Below, one piece after another: positions 470 to 63,542 of a DNA stretch of 64,000 nt. The notes under the pieces were generated by a model. The model was not told where the DNA came from. It searched no databases and was given only the letters and a program-made list of their open reading frames with translations. Every line of letters starts with the position of its first letter. Position 1 is the stretch's first letter. The DNA lies in NCBI GenBank assembly GCA_963722385.1, contig CAVRKK010000002.1, positions 448,001 to 512,000 on the forward strand, given 5' to 3'. The stretch is from an uncultured bacterium. Lineage in GTDB: Bacteria > Babelota > Babeliae > Babelales > Babelaceae. Position numbers and translations under genes: made by a program.

Positions 470-606
470 ATACTTATTCCTATATAGAATTCGTTTTAAT
501 TAGTGATTAGTATACAAAATTAAGAGCGTTTCTCAACGTCCTTGATTGGGTGGTATTTTGGTCCTCGCAAATTCCGCCAACCTTTAAAGACGATTGCCTT
601 AAATTG

Positions 607-1027
607 AATTGAATCGCCTGCGCGGCGAGCGCCAAAGGGGGTGCCGCCTCCGCTGATCGCTTTTTTACAAAAAGCTGCTACGGACAAGCGTTGCGCTACT
701 CCGCATCGCTATGTCCTTTGGGATCCCGTAGCGTTGTTGCTTACAAGCTTGGTGTGTGTAGTTATCGTACGCAAAAGCGTACGATAACTTACGCCATTAT
801 CATGTTCGCTACACTCCATGATAAAAATTTAATATCGCTTTCTATTTTCCGTCAGGAAAATTGCGTTTGCCGTAATCATGCGCCCCGCATGGTTATGGCA
901 TGAAAAGAGATAAAAGATATAGCAAGTACCGTGAAGCATCAATGGGTGCAGGGCCGCCGCCCTGCTGCCCGCCGCATAGGCGCGCCCGCTGCGTAAGCGT
1001 TCCCGTCATAGCCTTGCCAAAGCCGGC
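607..1027 (+). repeat. Modular hairpin-rich intergenic element, copy A
   Basis: Reverse-complement homolog of 15351-15801 over its length and of 25166-25354 over its right half; contains several stem-loops (760-789, 844-861, 868-900). Confidence 0.9.
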
Positions 1028-1065
1028 TGCGTAGTCACGCCTGCTGCGTCAGCACTTCAAATTTA

Positions 1066-4978: not shown

Positions 4979-5880
4979 CGCGAATTCGATCTAAGCCGGT
5001 AAACCAAAAAAAAGAAAATCGGCTGCAAGAGAGGGCTTTTTTTGCCTAAATGAGTAAGCAATTAAGGCAGAAAAGATGGAGGACAAAAAATTAATTGGGC
5101 TTCTATGTCTGGTATGCTCAATAGAAATAGATGATTTAAGGATGCCGATAGCAGATTCAGCCAACCCGCTCTTTTTAAGCAACAATTTGTCAAAAATATT
5201 CATCAGTATATTCTTCATATTAGTGCGTATTTTGGTAACAAAGTGAACTCCTTTATCATAAAATTCTTGAAATGTATCAGACTTAAGAATATATCCTTTG
5301 TCACCAAAAAGCTTGCCAGTTATTTGCTTTGTTAAGCTATTAAGCACATCATAATTATTATCAGCAATATTGCCTTGAGTTAACAAAAAATCAACAATCT
5401 CGCCAAAATGGTTGAAAACAAGGTGTAATTTAAAACCAAAGAACCAATCAATGCTTGTTTTCCCTCTTTTCGCTATCCCTTTAAAAACTTTGTTGCTGTG
5501 AATTCTTTTGTTGTGGCATACTTTTAGAGACGAGCTGTCTATAAAGGAAATACCCGTGCATTTTCCCAGACATTTCATTCTTAAAAATAGGCTAGAGTGA
5601 GCAATGCGTATTTCATGAGCTCTACGAATCTGTTGTAACTTACTAATTGCTTAAATTCTCCTGTTAACTGTACCAATACATGCTTACAATAATAATCTTT
5701 AAATGTTTTATACCCAGAGCAATGATAATAAATCATAATGGTCATAATCTCACAGAGTTGCAGCCTGCTCTTTCTTTTCCTCTTTTTTCACCTTGCAGAC
5801 AAGCCAGGCATCCACTTTTTTCAACGTCTTCGCAAAAATTCGCAACGTGGTAAAATAGAGTAACGAGCAAAGTACTATCC
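4978..5880 (-). mobile_element. IS982-family element, degenerate (transposase with two frameshifts)
   Basis: ORF 4991-5578 has FIDSSSLKVCHNKRI, GWFFGFKLHL-like and GDKGY motifs. Upstream frames give RLQLCEIMTIMIYYHCSGYKTFKDYY...VSYNRFVEL. An end-like sequence ACGCGAATTCGAT sits at 4978-4990; the other end was not found. Confidence 0.85.
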
Positions 5881-15350: not shown

Positions 15351-15801
15351 GCCGACTTCGCCAAGGCTACGATGGGAACGCTTACGCAGCGGGCGCGCCT
15401 GTGCGGCGTGCAGCAGGGCGGCGGCCCTGCCCCGTTGCCTAATTTATTTTTCTCTACATGCCTGTCTTTTATTTTTCCATGCTATAACCATGCGTGGCGC
15501 ATGCTTATAGCTATCGCAATTCTCCTAACGGAGAATAGAAAATATGGGTTTTTTATCATGAAGCGCAGCGTACATGATAATGGCGTAAGTTATCGTCTGC
15601 TTTTGCAGACGATAACTACTCACCAAGCTTATAAGCACGTCGCATCGGGATCCCAAAGGACATATCGATGCGGAGTAGCGCAACGCTTGTCCGTAGCAGC
15701 TTTTTGTAAAAAAAACGATCAGCGGAGGCGGGACCCCCTTTGGCGCTAGCCGCCACAGCCCTGCGAAGCGTTTGCGCGAAGAAGAGGCAGGCGATTCAAT
15801 T
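15351..15801 (-). repeat. Modular hairpin-rich intergenic element, copy B
   Basis: Reverse complement aligns with 607-1027, with an extra ~35-bp insert near 15755-15787. Confidence 0.9.
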
Positions 15802-25165: not shown

Positions 25166-25577
25166 GCCGACTTCTTCGCCAAGCTACGACGGGGACGCTT
25201 ACGCAGCGGGCGCGCCTGTGCGGCGTGCAGCAGGGCGGCGGCCCTGCACCCACACCAGAGGGATTTTTGCTTTACAGCCTACCTTCGCGTGCCTAATGCC
25301 ATAACCATGCGGGGCGCATGATTATGGCAAACGCAATTTTCCTGACGGAAAATAAATTCTTTTGTGCAGTAAACCTCTCTACCAAAATATTTAATAAATA
25401 AAAGTCTGATGAGGCCCTCCGTAGTTGCTCGGCGCGTCCTTCGAGGACGCAAGATGCACGAGTAGGGCCGCTTGAAAGGGTCCAGGGGGAACCCTTGGCG
25501 CACGGGATGCAAGGGGGTTTGCGAGAACCCCACTTGCCGCCGACCGCGGAGGTCATTTGCTGCCCGCCGCATAGGCG
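25166..25577 (-). repeat. Modular hairpin-rich intergenic element, copy C (shared half plus different GC-rich hairpin modules)
   Basis: 25166-25354 matches copies A and B; 25405-25577 has other stem-loops; 18/20 inverted repeat between 25213-25232 and 25558-25577. Confidence 0.85.
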
Positions 25578-25791
25578 TTAACTCCAAGGAACCGCTGGTG
25601 CACCGAATGCAAATGTGATTCTATCCTAGCCTGCATCAGCATTCGCGCTTTCTTTGTTATTTGCCTAACTAAAATATTTTGAGTATTCTTACCACAATTT
25701 AATTTTTATAATGGCTGTAGCTCTAGACCTCATAACAAGATCATACGTTAACATAAGAAATAGGCTGCATAAATTCTTAAGGTCGGGAATC

Positions 25792-26975
25792 ATGTATAGC
25801 ACCCTTCTCAAAAAACTTAACCTTGTCTTCTCGTTCACGTTACTGTTTTCTTCGCTTTTGGCAAATCACGGTTTTCCTCGTGAGACACTCGTGCAAACAA
25901 TAGCGGGGTCTCGACCAATCGAGGAGCTAGGGTACAGCCATACCATAATGTGCTTTGATTTCGAGGATGTCCATAGAAGCAGCGTTATCAAGAGACATAC
26001 TGATACTGAGCTTTCACTTACCGTCGCTGTTATTGTAGAAGACTTTAAAACACGGGAAACCGTTGAGATGATTCACTGTGGCTACCAACAAAAATTTTAT
26101 TCTGCCAGCCGTAACCGCTGGGTAGAGGCTCAAAATTTATGTCAGGATGATATATTAGTGAGCAGTACTCATGGGCTCATGCGTTGTAATGGTATTTGGG
26201 TTTTTTCTAGTGGTAGACGCCATTTAATGTCACTTGAGATAGAGAACTGGCATAATTTTTTCGTTGGCAAGCATAGCATTCTGGTGCACAATTATATGCC
26301 AGCGCCTTCGGTCGTTGTGCGTGTAGCCTGGTTGTTCGGTGGTTCAGTAGCTACCGGAACCCTTTCTTGGAATGTAGGAATCGGCATTGGCATTCTTGGT
26401 CTTGCTGGCTTAGGCTTTGGATATTTCATGTCAGGCGAAGAAGCAAAAAATGGACCGTATGCCGAATTCGACGCTGACAGGTTTGGCCAGCAATTCAATA
26501 AAAAGCCCGAATACCATCATGAAAATTTTGCGGGATCATCTCAAAATACTTATGCTGGCTTCGGCAATGACGAATCAACGACTGAAGAGCCAGGTAGCGA
26601 AGAATATGAGCATACCGAGGAAACTACTTCGCAATCATTTGCCAGCACCGCTGCAGGTGGCGAAGACCTGAACATGATCCAAGAAGAAAAAGAAACCATA
26701 CACCACAACCTCCTAAGCAAACAAATTTAAGCCAACAGTCTAAGTTAGAACTCGGAAGATCAATACGTAGCTTTCAAAGACTCATAAAAGAACATGAACA
26801 AAAATTAGAAGCATATAAAAAGAATCCTTATGAACATGACAATGAGGGATACTTAAAAAATGCACCATCAAATGAAATAAGGAAAAAAATTATTAAAAGA
26901 AGAATCGAAATCTTAGGAGAACAGATTACAAATTTTCATAAGGATATAGCGAAGGCAGTCGATGAATTAGCTTGA
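25792..26975 (+). CDS. Hint-domain polymorphic toxin precursor (signal peptide, Hint, TM, linker, helical C-terminal domain), frameshifted at 26667-26668
   Basis: GFPRETLV...LEIENWHNFFVGKHSILVHN Hint signature. The paralog at 32349 shows a missing C (GACCTG vs GACCCTG); restoring it reads through to ..RSIRSFQRLIKEHEQKLEAYKKNPYEHDNEGYLKNAPSNEIRKKIIKRRIEIL..DELA*. Confidence 0.8.
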
Positions 26976-32200: not shown

Positions 32201-32834
32201 CTTTCTTTGTTATTTGCCTAATTAAAACATTTTGAGTATTCTTACCACAATTTAACTTTTATAATGGCCGCAGCTCTAGCTCTCATAAAAAGATCGTACA
32301 CTTGCACAAGAAATAGGGCTGCATCAATTTCGTAAACGGCTTGGAATCATGTATAATACTCTTCTCAAAAAACTTAATCTTGTCTTCTCGTTCACGTTAC
32401 TGTTTTCTTCGCTCTTGGGTGAAGAAGCGAAAAATGGACCGTATGCCGAATTCGATGCTGACAGGTTTGGCCAGCAATTCAATAAAAAGCCTGAATACCA
32501 TCATGAAAATTTTGCGGGATCATCTCAAAATACTTATTCCGGATTTGACAATGACGAATCAACGACTGATGAGCCAGGTAGCGAAGAATATGAGCATAAC
32601 GAGGAAAATGCTTCGCAATCATTTACCAGCACCGCTGCAGGTGGCGAAGACCCTGAAAATGATCCACGAAGAAAAAGAAACCAACATACAACATACCCTC
32701 CCGAGCCAACAAATTTAGGCGAACAGACTAACTTACAACTTGGAAGAGGAATACGTAAACTGCAAAGAAGAATGAAGGAACATGAAGAAAAATTGGAAGT
32801 ATATAAAAAGAATCCTTTCGATGCCAAACGCTAA
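32201..32834 (+). pseudogene. Duplicate of the toxin locus (promoter plus CDS 32349-32834) lacking Hint/TM and toxin C-terminus
   Basis: 32201-32418 matches ~25648-25860, then joins in frame to the GEEAKNGPY linker; stops at KKNPFDAKR*. Confidence 0.8.
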
Positions 32835-34832: not shown

Positions 34833-36081
34833 CAGGGCCGGCTCATCTAAATTTGATTGACAATTAATTCCAAAGTGCTAGGTTGCCAGCAAGACAGCTT
34901 TCGAAGACATTTGATACTGATGTACTTATCAACCAATGGCTGGGCTCGTTTGAGCAAGTTAAGCGCCAAACTTTTGATGGTCGCTACATTTTGAGGAGCA
35001 TTACCTTTTCGAATTCTCGATTGATCATCATTAAAGCAAACATCGAGTACCCAATGCATCGAATTCTCTATTAACCAGTGACTTCTTGCGGCGCGCAATA
35101 TTCTTTCTGCTGATGCAGGAATACTTGTTATGTAGTAACGTTTTTCTATAGTCTTATTCTTACCAATCAATCGCTCTGATTGTATACAGGCAATGCTCTT
35201 TAGTGAGACCCAATCATTCTTTTTAGAAATCCAGCCTATTTGATCGGTTGTTGTACAAGTCCTAATCTCAATTCGACCATGCCCTTTTTCTGTTTCTGAA
35301 AATGTATCATGCTTAATATTGATATATTTTGATTCGCTTTCTATTTCAAAGAAAGTTTTTATTTCTTCAAGAAGATCACCTTGATTGCCCTTTACATTAA
35401 GCAAATAATCCCCTTTTTTGTCAATAATCTTTTGAGCAATTTTTTTCTGGGTCCCTATTGCATCAATCGTCACTATCGCACCGCAGATATCAATTAAGTC
35501 CAAGAGCTGCGGGATAGCCGTTATTTCATTCGATTTTCCTTCTACCTTTTTTTGACAAAGGACCATTCTAACATCTGTCGCAAATGCATTGACTAGATAA
35601 AGAGGCTCTTTATCTTCTGTTTCACCCTGATCAAAGCTTCTTTTTGTCACTTTCCCATCTATGGCTACTGTTCTTGCATCATCAGTGTCTCTGTTATCCC
35701 TTACTGATGCTACTAAATCGCTTACCCATTTTACAAATATTTTAGAAAACTCATTAGGATCAAGTGCTCTAAAAAATCTCCTTAACGTATCATCGCTTGG
35801 TACCCCATTTTCAAATGGTAGATACTTTTTAAGTACGTCTAATCGAGCTTTTCCGTAGTATTCGATATCTTTCCAACCCTCGCACCCACTTATAACCCCT
35901 ACCAGAGTTAAAAAAAGAATATCTGCCATTGAATGCAGTTTTCCTCTTTCAATTCTTGGGTCTTCTAGTTCACCTATATAATCCAAAAAACTAATATTTC
36001 TGTCTTCCATCTTGGTTCTCCCGGTTTTTTTTGAGAACCATTATATCTTAGTTTTTTAATTTTTTAAGTGAGCCGGCCCTG
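34833..36081 (-). mobile_element. Intact ISAs1-family insertion sequence
   Basis: Terminal inverted repeats CAGGGCCGGCTCA / TGAGCCGGCCCTG; 10-bp direct repeat GCTTATTCTG at 34823-34832 and 36082-36091. Confidence 0.95.
34847..36010 (-). CDS. ISAs1-family transposase
   Basis: LEDPR, PSDDT, AIDGK, KSNEITAIP, VTIDA, VKGNQ, GHGRIE, RSHWLIENSMHWVLDV. Confidence 0.95.
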   Translation of the reverse strand: MEDRNISFLDYIGELEDPRIERGKLHSMADILFLTLVGVISGCEGWKDIEYYGKARLDVLKKYLPFENGVPSDDTLRRFFRALDPNEFSKIFVKWVSDLVASVRDNRDTDDARTVAIDGKVTKRSFDQGETEDKEPLYLVNAFATDVRMVLCQKKVEGKSNEITAIPQLLDLIDICGAIVTIDAIGTQKKIAQKIIDKKGDYLLNVKGNQGDLLEEIKTFFEIESESKYINIKHDTFSETEKGHGRIEIRTCTTTDQIGWISKKNDWVSLKSIACIQSERLIGKNKTIEKRYYITSIPASAERILRAARSHWLIENSMHWVLDVCFNDDQSRIRKGNAPQNVATIKSLALNLLKRAQPLVDKYISIKCLRKLSCWQPSTLELIVNQI

Positions 36082-60023: not shown

Positions 60024-62303
60024 CTACTTCCAGAAAGTCAGCTTCCAGAACAGTTCAGAACTCCAAAGAATATTGAACAAAACTCTTATGTCGCTGAGGT
60101 GAAAAGGAGCAATACGCCCCTCAGGGGCTGGCAAGTAACAGATTCGCACATCGTCCGCGATGACCTTAGCTCCTTTTAACATATACGGATAGATCATCTT
60201 GCTCCAAAACGCATCCTTCAACATTTTTGCGCCTTCTTTGCTGCAAATCCCCGCGCTCGTCAGCCTTACCATTTGGTATACTATATTGGTTACCACCAAT
60301 CTCAAAAGAGCATATTTACTACGTGATAGTCTCGCTCCTATATCATTTACCAATGATTGGAATAGTGTCTCTGCCACGATATCAGCGCTTATTTGCTTAC
60401 TCGCAAGTGTTTTCTTGCCAGTGGCGCCTTCCTTGCTCGCCGCGTTCTGCTGTTTCTTGTCTTTCTCTCGAGCAGAATTCTCTTGGCTTAGCGTGTCCCC
60501 AAAGACCGAGGAACTACCGCTATTCATTACTTGAGCATGCTCATTGGGTACTAGCCCACAATCACCATAGGTTTCGGATTCTGCAAATCCCTTTTCCTTC
60601 TCTTCGGTGAACATCCCATTTCTTCCTAAGATGAAACAATCATCAGCAGGTTTCTTGACTGCGGCTGGAATTTCATTGGGGCTCACACTATTTATTATTC
60701 GCGCATGCTCCTTGCGCAACTCTTGCGCTGATATCTCGGTGTTATTACGAACGGGGAGGTCTCTCGCACGATTAACGAGGTTATCAACCAACCAAGCGCC
60801 ACAATCAGCATACCAAGCTTGTTGTTGTTGCGTATGCAACAACCAAGCGCCACAATCAGCAAAAGCTGGTTGGTGCGTATGCAGCAAGCGGCTCGTAATC
60901 TGTATTCCTTGAATGCAGGCAACATCAGCGATTATAGCGTCTATATCCTTGAGCGTTGTATAGAGTTCATCATCGAGCAATGCCTTGAGATCCGTATCTT
61001 CATCAGGCACCCTCCAGGAATCTAGGTACTCAACAACATACCCACCATCGTCCCCACGGCGAATAACAAGCCCTATCCAATAGTAGCCTGTTGGTCTATT
61101 CCCATAATCGACTATTTCTCGTGTTTTGTTAACAGGAATTACGGTAGGAACAGCAGCAGTAAATGCCCATATTAACTGGTCGACAAAAGTGTTTCTAGCT
61201 TGTTCTTGCATGCTTCCTTGAATTAAGGGGCTTGCAGCAGCCAACACTTGCGCCTGAAATTCACCGTCGCTTTCTTCCAAGTAATAGCGCAACAAACGGT
61301 CAATGTCATAATCTTCATAAGAATACTCAGCATCAGTAAGATCACGGATTTGGGATGTGGATATCAAAGAAGAGTCGTCTGTTGCTTGCACTCCTTGGGG
61401 CAAGTTCCCACCATTATTCGCTATGACATCGCCGGCAGGTGTTTTTGTGGCGACTGTAACTTCATTAGGCTCTCCCTTATTCTCTTCGCTTTTTATTTGC
61501 CCCGAAGAACTACCGTTATTCATTACTTGAGCGTGCTCATTACGTAACTTTTGCCCTGATGTCTCGGTGTTATTGCGTACGGGGCGGTTGCGAGCACGGT
61601 TAACGAGGTTATCAACCAACCAAACCCCACAATCAACATCCCCTGCTTGTTGGCGCGTATGCAACACTCTACTTGTAATCTGTATTCCTCGGGCATGTGC
61701 AAAATCAGCGATTATCGCGTCTATATCCTTGTGTGCCGCATAATGTCCATCATCAAGTAATTCCTTGAGATCCATATCTTTATCGGGTGCAACCGAGGAA
61801 TCTAAGTACTCAACAACATACCCACCATCGTCCCCACGGCGAATAACAAGCCCTATCCAATGGATGCCTCCTCGTGTTCCGCTATTCCCATAACCACCAA
61901 CACTTGCTCGTGTTATATTAACAGGAATTACGGTAACATCAGCTGTAAATGCCCATGTTAACTGGTCGGCAAAAGTTTCTTTCGCTCCCTCTTGCATGCT
62001 TCCTTGAATTAAGGGGCTCGCAGCAGCCAACACTTGCGCCTGAAATTCACCGTCGCCTGCTTCCAAGTAATAGCGCAACAAACGGTCAATTTCGTTATCT
62101 TCATAAGAGTACTCAGCATCAGTAAGATCACGGGTTTGGGATATGAAAGAAGAGGCTCCTCCCGTGCGCTGCTCAATGGTGTTTTTGATTTCCTCTGGAG
62201 CTTTTTCCTGTTCTTTATCATCTTTCTCCATAGCACGGAGTGCCCCCGATGATACAAGCACTATACCGCACAAAATGGATGCAAAAATCAGTTTTCTTTT
62301 CAC
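60024..62303 (-). CDS. Secreted protein with two tandem Ulp1/CE-clan cysteine protease-like domains
   Basis: GIHWIGLVI..EYLDS..QQAGDVDCGVWL in domain 1; near-identical domain 2 about 260 aa later; signal ..GALRA-MEK. Confidence 0.8.
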   Translation of the reverse strand: MKRKLIFASILCGIVLVSSGALRAMEKDDKEQEKAPEEIKNTIEQRTGGASSFISQTRDLTDAEYSYEDNEIDRLLRYYLEAGDGEFQAQVLAAASPLIQGSMQEGAKETFADQLTWAFTADVTVIPVNITRASVGGYGNSGTRGGIHWIGLVIRRGDDGGYVVEYLDSSVAPDKDMDLKELLDDGHYAAHKDIDAIIADFAHARGIQITSRVLHTRQQAGDVDCGVWLVDNLVNRARNRPVRNNTETSGQKLRNEHAQVMNNGSSSGQIKSEENKGEPNEVTVATKTPAGDVIANNGGNLPQGVQATDDSSLISTSQIRDLTDAEYSYEDYDIDRLLRYYLEESDGEFQAQVLAAASPLIQGSMQEQARNTFVDQLIWAFTAAVPTVIPVNKTREIVDYGNRPTGYYWIGLVIRRGDDGGYVVEYLDSWRVPDEDTDLKALLDDELYTTLKDIDAIIADVACIQGIQITSRLLHTHQPAFADCGAWLLHTQQQQAWYADCGAWLVDNLVNRARDLPVRNNTEISAQELRKEHARIINSVSPNEIPAAVKKPADDCFILGRNGMFTEEKEKGFAESETYGDCGLVPNEHAQVMNSGSSSVFGDTLSQENSAREKDKKQQNAASKEGATGKKTLASKQISADIVAETLFQSLVNDIGARLSRSKYALLRLVVTNIVYQMVRLTSAGICSKEGAKMLKDAFWSKMIYPYMLKGAKVIADDVRICYLPAPEGRIAPFHLSDIRVLFNILWSSELFWKLTFWK

Positions 62304-63185: not shown

Positions 63186-63542
63186 TGGTGGAGGCGATGG
63201 GAGTCGAACCCATGTCCGTCATATCGCAACCCTCAAGCACTCCATGTTCAGTCTTTGCTTATACTTCGCGTACCCTCCAAAGACAAAGATTATACGCAAA
63301 TGTTCGTTTCGTATATTGTCAAGCTACTCAACGAAGAAGCCTTACTTGACAGTCCCATCTTGTTTATACGTGCTAGCCCAATTGGTGGGCACATCAAGCT
63401 AGCAAGCGCTCATTGCCCTTAGGCAAAAGCTGGACGAGTTGTTTCGCCGTTTATTGTTTTCGATTCTTTTTTAACGAGCACTGAATCAAAGCTCGACATG
63501 CACTCAAAGATCTTAATACCACGTCGAAGCCATTACGCCCCC
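63186..63542 (-). ncRNA. ssrA: tmRNA
   Basis: 5' GGGGGCGTAATGGCTTCGAC; 3' GGGTTCGACTCCCATCGCCTCCACCA; G3-U acceptor pair; directly downstream of smpB; tag frame 63419-63448 reads GETTRPAFA*. Confidence 0.95.

Follow-up and report, generated by a model that had tools for sequence, protein, structure and literature searches.

Does the branched intergenic element at the start of this window act as an RNA, or is it a piece of mobile DNA? The window is the whole stretch of 64,000 nucleotides that was analysed (C2:448001-512000 of a 1.6-Mb genome with 43% GC and an ankyrin-rich gene set). A preliminary description had proposed three copies of the element here, the third as one half only, and had left both answers open. 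All three are present, copy A at 607-1027 on the + strand and copies B and C on the - strand (Table 1), but they are a small part of the family: a BLAST search of the genome with the element returned 50 loci, and HMMs of its modules found 54, all of them intergenic and none enclosing an ORF. Left arm and right end were matched together in 34 of the 54 HMM loci. Moreover, copy C is not a half but a full element with a second class of left arm. Two left-arm classes (A and C) occur in the family, with H3, H4 and the right end common to both.

Each end of the element, read outward, consists of a larger hairpin, a mini-hairpin with a 4-bp stem and a ragged pyrimidine-rich tail. The mini-hairpin has a five-base loop (G, C, purine, any, A) of the GNRNA type, which is familiar from RNA. 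This loop is carried by the top strand at the right end and by the bottom strand at the left, so that the two signals are inverted and point outward. Mini-hairpins are often arranged in tandem with a 17-base period. A perfect stem closes 90 of 3697 intergenic matches to this loop, as against 23 of 4027 matches in a control with pyrimidine loops. Between the ends lie the hairpins H1 to H4 and an A-rich spacer; the stems of the left arms differ here from that of the right end. A second class of small repeats has its modules inserted in the loops of the element, and the one nested in the left arm of copy A is missing in 18 of 20 aligned copies. It is this nested class, and not the element ends, that resembles tagged REPs; hairpins flanking a small GIY-YIG gene elsewhere in the genome (L019, G000:C1:296557-296762) look by eye like the nested modules. 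At G000:C2:439081-439900 the remnant of an IS3-like transposase interrupts the element after H1, and split loci such as C2:439081, considered as autonomous elements, were rejected as interrupted by an IS. A hammerhead-like word in class C was also set aside, the remainder of the hammerhead core being absent by eye.

Table 1. Parts of the three elements and other features observed in the window; part coordinates were taken by eye from the sequence.
Feature	Position	Strand	Remark
Copy A, ragged pentamer-repeat tail	604..614	+	outside the left end
Copy A, left mini-hairpin	615..627	-	4-bp stem, loop G-C-purine-any-A, outward on the bottom strand
Copy A, class-A left-arm hairpin	632..721	-	loop broken by a nested second-class module at about 647-714
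Copy A, H1	760..789	+	12-13 bp
Copy A, H2	797..824	+	invariant 8-bp stem, variable loop
Copy A, H3	844..861	+	7 bp; 18 haplotypes in 45 matches
Copy A, H4	869..899	+	14 bp; 25 haplotypes in 35 matches
Copy A, spacer	900..943	+	A-rich, weakly conserved
Copy A, right-end G-rich hairpin	944..965	+	part common to other phyla, ssDNA viruses and RRS
Copy A, two tandem mini-hairpins	970..999	+	970-982 and 987-999; 17-base period
Copy A, added small REP-like module and third mini-hairpin	1009..1036	+	third mini-hairpin degenerate
Copy B, full class-A element	15351..15801	-	nested modules; between divergent genes
Copy C, full element	25166..25577	-	about 410 bp, limits approximate; class-C left arm, H3, H4, right end
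Short DDE transposase gene	4991..5578	-	DDE_Tnp_1_3 type
Duplicated gene pieces	25648..26829 and 32201..32817		79-94% identity; start adjoining copy C
DDE transposase gene	34847..36010	-	ISAs1-type
RickCE-like/Ulp1 peptidase domain protein	60024..62303	-	long internal repeats, effector-like

The preliminary description had started from paired changes in the stems, and these are indeed in the sequence: the swap of two adjacent pairs in H1 (760-789 against the reverse complement of 15588-15617), the change of H3 from ATTTTCC-GTCA-GGAAAAT (844-861) to ATTCTCC-GTTA-GGAGAAT (15519-15536, reverse complement), and that of H4 from GCCGTAA..TTATGGC (869-899) to GCTATAA..TTATAGC. In an alignment of 20 class-A copies, both partners had changed in 21 of 67 pairs, where shuffling gave 8.9 +/- 1.7; none of 500 shuffles reached 21, a count not to be read as a probability, since the structure was taken from one row and the copies are related. 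Counted as cells of the alignment, 71 stem changes were two-sided and 11 one-sided. Relative to shuffled sequences, copy A folds as RNA with z scores of -9.3 (+) and -5.5 (-), and as DNA with -5.6 and -5.4, equally on the two strands.

Such a pattern could mean that the family consists of structured non-coding RNAs or cis-acting RNA elements whose fold is under selection. The strong RNA fold of the + strand, in which the ends are paired, and the covariation itself speak for an RNA role, as do the wobbles of the right mini-hairpin, which fall on the loop-bearing strand in 8 matches against no A-C pair, and one copy in a same-genus genome (G001, median protein identity 56%) that has H3/H4-like stems of different sequence. 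Nevertheless, this role appears quite improbable. No Rfam family was recognized on 20 loci, either at gathering level or in E-value mode, and in the whole window Rfam matched only the tmRNA at 63186-63542 (-). Orientation towards genes is random, the element being sense 11 times and antisense 9 times between co-directional genes, which weakens the earlier argument from its antisense position, and an excess of copies lies between convergent genes (18 of 47, compared with 155 of 845 gaps). Interiors can be inverted and are unrelated between lineages that keep the ends. The claim that G-T wobbles favour the + strand is likewise weak: DNA folds equally well on both strands, interior wobbles show no clear preference for the loop-bearing strand and wobble intermediates are few. 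Of 17 left-arm hairpins, 2 have top-strand A-C pairs, equivalent to bottom-strand wobbles, and three independent A-C haplotypes of the long interior stem exist alongside G-T ones.

Template switching within DNA hairpins, known as quasi-palindrome mutagenesis, offers another source of paired changes. Because wobble intermediates are scarce, loops have been flipped, and neither an orientation bias nor an Rfam match was found, the covariation reads as DNA hairpin self-correction combined with mosaic recombination, rather than as RNA selection. Flipped loops were seen in 1 of 25 H1 and at least 2 of 35 H4 hairpins, one H4 mismatch has been perfected in several different ways across copies, and the distances between modules are nearly uncorrelated (rho -0.23 to 0.40). 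We infer that two-sided changes, flipped loops and uncorrelated modules together form the pattern expected of template switching and inter-copy recombination. Most of the compensatory changes can arise by hairpin-templated correction, selection not being required. The earlier view that structure rather than sequence is selected is correct only in part, the sequence of the end signal being kept across phyla. More generally, strong covariation in DNA repeats should be read with caution, as it is possible without any RNA function.

The other proposal of the preliminary description, a non-autonomous mobile element with single-stranded hairpins, gained support from some 50 intergenic copies, inverted ends on opposite strands, empty sites and a patchy distribution. 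We consider it probable that the element is non-autonomous and is dealt with as single-stranded DNA. BLAST against 40 relatives matched the element in a single genome, and there only by its end. That genome, G001, has a family of its own, of about 21 copies, with like ends, an unrelated interior and two outer arms, which are related to each other, measure about 38 bp and terminate in a short palindromic word. Relative to these fixed arms, the interior lies one way in 12 and is inverted in 7 of 19 copies (e.g. L285, L289, L292). Empty orthologous sites, for which the preliminary description had advised a search, do exist: only 6 of the 54 loci had adjacent orthologous neighbours in G001, and four of these six gaps are short and empty, including the site of copy B (692 bp here, 152 bp in G001), while the other two are occupied by other sequence. 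Within the phylum, the mini-hairpin word was matched 86, 26 and 19 times in three of 251 genomes and 0-6 times elsewhere; in another phylum, an expansion was seen in 1 of 61 genomes. Neither a target-site duplication nor a fixed end is visible in this genome or in the inverted doublets of other phyla described below, and G001 is too distant to fix the junctions. DNA contigs from four runs, with fragmentary coverage, contained no joint skipping copy A or B among the matches listed.

The end signal extends over about 40 bases and is shared by six phyla, counting that of the host. An exact right-end pattern was matched in at least 125 metagenome and at least 127 genome stretches. By record title, its carriers include Binatus/Binataceae, Clostridia, Planctomycetota, Chloroflexaceae and Acidiferrales, a spread over Binatia, Clostridia, Planctomycetota, Chloroflexota and Acidobacteriota, with unrelated interiors. 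The mini-stem is perfect in 261 of 269 pattern matches, though the pattern did not require it. Foreign occurrences comprise many single ends, inverted doublets and tandem arrays. Twenty of the 24 inverted doublets are spaced by 62-196 bases, and those of a Chloroflexaceae genome measure 300-420 bp. At L295 (G255), L229/L265 (Clostridiaceae) and L472 the end signal is repeated in tandem, the units measuring 25, 39-40 and about 44 bases; in G040 (L301, L302, L454) the same mini-hairpin terminates a distinct structured repeat of about 230 bp that has one such end only.

Single-strand initiation signals also include the complementary-strand origins of ssDNA phages. Viral contigs all but lack the full end signal (one match), which was not found in the plasmids searched either; the large end hairpin alone is common in viral contigs. 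Among 36 matches to narrow patterns were five ssDNA-virus contigs, and all five carry the motif on their gene strand. With a pattern of about 16 bases, widened following the first matches, 32 of 70 distinct viral loci carried Zot (29) or microvirus Rep (3), families that were confirmed, against none of 69 loci for a complement control pattern; flanks were present for 80 loci in each set, out of at least 142 for the test and at least 120 for the control pattern. The nearest motif lies on the gene strand in 31 of these 32 loci. Independent cases are few, because most matches are related inoviruses of the xanthomonad type with a variant stem, and the mini-hairpin occurs in none of the matches listed. 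The independent cases are two Zot groups, microviruses and one CRESS-like contig, in which the large hairpin adjoins the origin stem-loop. A variant of the large hairpin is also found in the plasmid Col(MG828), beside an oriT-like stretch. Eight inovirus-like contigs (L556, L560, L567, L574, L590, L592, L600, L610) carry the large hairpin as an inverted pair 0.7-1 kb apart, which encloses an inverted duplication of a small gene. The available text on Xanthomonas phages places their mapped origin and packaging hairpins within the Rep gene, and these differ in sequence from the large end hairpin (10.1101/2023.12.30.573655). Our literature search brought up no report of the large end hairpin priming DNA synthesis.

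Because part of the end signal lies on the packaged strand of ssDNA viruses, the family is likely to have spread as ssDNA. Our preferred reading, which we hold tentatively, is that of a REPIN-like, gene-less element spread as ssDNA, the end hairpins being putative second-strand priming signals for host enzymes, which alone may possibly suffice for its spread. In this view the element consists of exchangeable hairpins enclosed by two inverted occurrences of a single cross-phylum end signal. As a signal is near the 3' end of each strand, priming at the ends would let second-strand synthesis cross the entire element from either strand. Once exposed, the hairpins would template their own repair, leaving two-sided stem changes and flipped loops; they would also invite recombination, giving module swaps, interior inversion and tandem ends, and take up other small repeats. 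Priming leaves strand release and reinsertion unexplained, and a like hairpin of Escherichia coli is reported, in the accessible text, as a polymerase block (PMC13308219; 10.1101/2023.10.01.560376), which speaks against this reading. So do the unlike stems of left arm and right end in this genome, the many single-ended copies elsewhere, the scarcity of the full end signal in viral contigs and a loop of a type familiar from RNA. Should the hairpin prove to be a priming signal, the copying of orphan repeats would have a possible route, many inoviruses and microviruses not yet characterised would gain a candidate origin for their second strand, and the E. coli repeats termed replication risk sequences (RRS) could be read otherwise than as a G-quadruplex. 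One could go further and propose a cross-phylum class of transposase-free mobile DNA, in which two single-strand priming signals, set back to back and derived from ssDNA viruses or plasmids, are copied by the primase or primosome of the host and spread through recombination; RRS would then be a domesticated relative with a single end, its 'G4' tract forming one arm of this hairpin. Such an extension is unlikely.

A dedicated HUH nuclease, similar to RAYT or TIRYT, could instead cut and paste REPIN-like doublets as single strands, the enzyme having been lost, left unassembled or diverged too far. REPINs have a comparable doublet anatomy, variable hairpin spacers and tandem forms (PMC3337134, available text), RAYT-like genes can be flanked by inverted repeats without GTAG (PMC3733652, available text), and an end sequence conserved across phyla implies a protein that reads it. 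However, no cognate enzyme emerged from Y1, GIY-YIG, Rep_trans and reverse transcriptase searches or from two screens of neighbouring genes, in MAGs whose incompleteness limits such searches and from which divergent enzymes could escape. The preliminary description had suggested looking for RAYT/Y1 or GIY-YIG genes beside the ends, and none was found next to them in this genome, where the Y1 genes are plain IS200 with other ends. The end signal is absent from all 10 Y1_Tnp loci of 16 other motif-bearing genomes, and no Y1 match was obtained in G001. Small GIY-YIG genes, at 30 loci in 20 motif-bearing genomes, are flanked by other REP types, and a single locus (L406) has the end signal on one side. 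Rep_trans was found in none of five genomes, and reverse transcriptase only as a fragment in the genome studied here, with none in G001, G255 or G040. Clusters of 2730 ORFs near the motif belong to housekeeping families. The 271 ORFs on the interior side came to 180 without duplicates and homologues from this genome, and the 129 screened against NCBIfam, at E 1e-12 only, included no mobile enzyme. Eighteen proteins with a His-x-His word shared with G001, considered as candidates, turned out to be ordinary proteins. A dedicated nuclease of this kind is somewhat unlikely.

Movement as double-stranded DNA, with the family as a MITE of an IS630- or IS5-like DDE transposase, would suit the inverted ends, the several DDE families of this genome and the related outer arms of G001, whose short terminal palindromic word is what a DDE target would be expected to leave. 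On the other side, no target duplication or fixed end is visible in this genome or the foreign doublets, the G001 arms are absent from this genome and never occur alone, and G001 has no multi-copy transposase. Recognition of a duplex also makes little sense of strand-specific loops. We regard a DDE mechanism as rather unlikely.

RRS are described, in the available text of the papers, as two conditionally essential copies of 222 bp that keep both sequence and position, lie on the lagging template and cause lagging-strand gaps through a G4 blocking lagging-strand synthesis (10.1101/2023.10.01.560376; PMC13308219; PMC10287960). Both copies in MG1655 end in a hairpin of the right-end form, of which the 5' arm is the reported G4 tract; this tract is predicted as one arm of a 12-14 bp hairpin (L793:3691 (+), L794:3213 (-)). 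The elements studied here could be imagined as domesticated triggers of replication gaps, retained for chromosome topology, in view of the GC-rich, multi-branched form that RRS share with them, the like G-run hairpin that closes both and the gaps that RRS are reported to produce. This is very improbable. The family occupies about 50 unconserved sites, whereas RRS are two fixed, single-ended copies without the mini-hairpin, their similarity confined to the hairpin and without HMM or BLAST score against the family. Of 45 right ends, only 15 fall on the lagging template, the G-rich strand (p 0.036), a weak hint of better tolerance on the other strand; in G044, where the skew is unclear, the count was 8 of 21. 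No description of the family was found in the literature search, supplements being outside its scope, and the supplementary alignments of RRS may bear on this comparison.

Among other repeats, those of the REPIN/TIR type are close in their inverted short palindromic ends, variable hairpin-forming spacers, intergenic position, patchy distribution and tandem variants, as far as the available descriptions go. In our family, inverted palindromic ends likewise surround a hairpin-forming spacer. We did not file it among REPINs or TIR repeats because inspection of the ends showed no GTAG or CGTC tag at the palindrome end and no Y1 (RAYT/TIRYT) gene flanked by the same repeat was found in MAGs that are incomplete and in which a divergent Y1 could be missed. 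It further differs in its two-hairpin end, its branched interiors of 60-490 bp and an end common to six phyla. According to the available text, many bacterial repeat families, such as CGTC REPs, have no known mobilising enzyme (PMC3733652). Structured MITEs form a further group for comparison.

Bacterial MITEs of this kind include Correia, RUP, BOX and ERIC. They are similar to the family in size, modular interiors, terminal inverted repeats and inter-copy recombination. The family has terminal inverted repeats as DDE-type MITEs do, but neither a target duplication nor a partner transposase, that is an autonomous IS with the same ends, was found, and its ends are cross-phylum. Finally, the ColE1 sites ssiA and ssiB (n'-pas) load PriA on ssDNA according to the available text (PMC3167613), and the hairpins of the family would, like them, act on one exposed strand. 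It is the large hairpin alone that is found on the exposed strand of ssDNA replicons, and the signal of the family differs from ssi in being doubled, inverted, dispersed over the chromosome and combined with a mini-hairpin. For the family itself, our analysis adds an end signal that crosses phyla and a link to ssDNA viruses.
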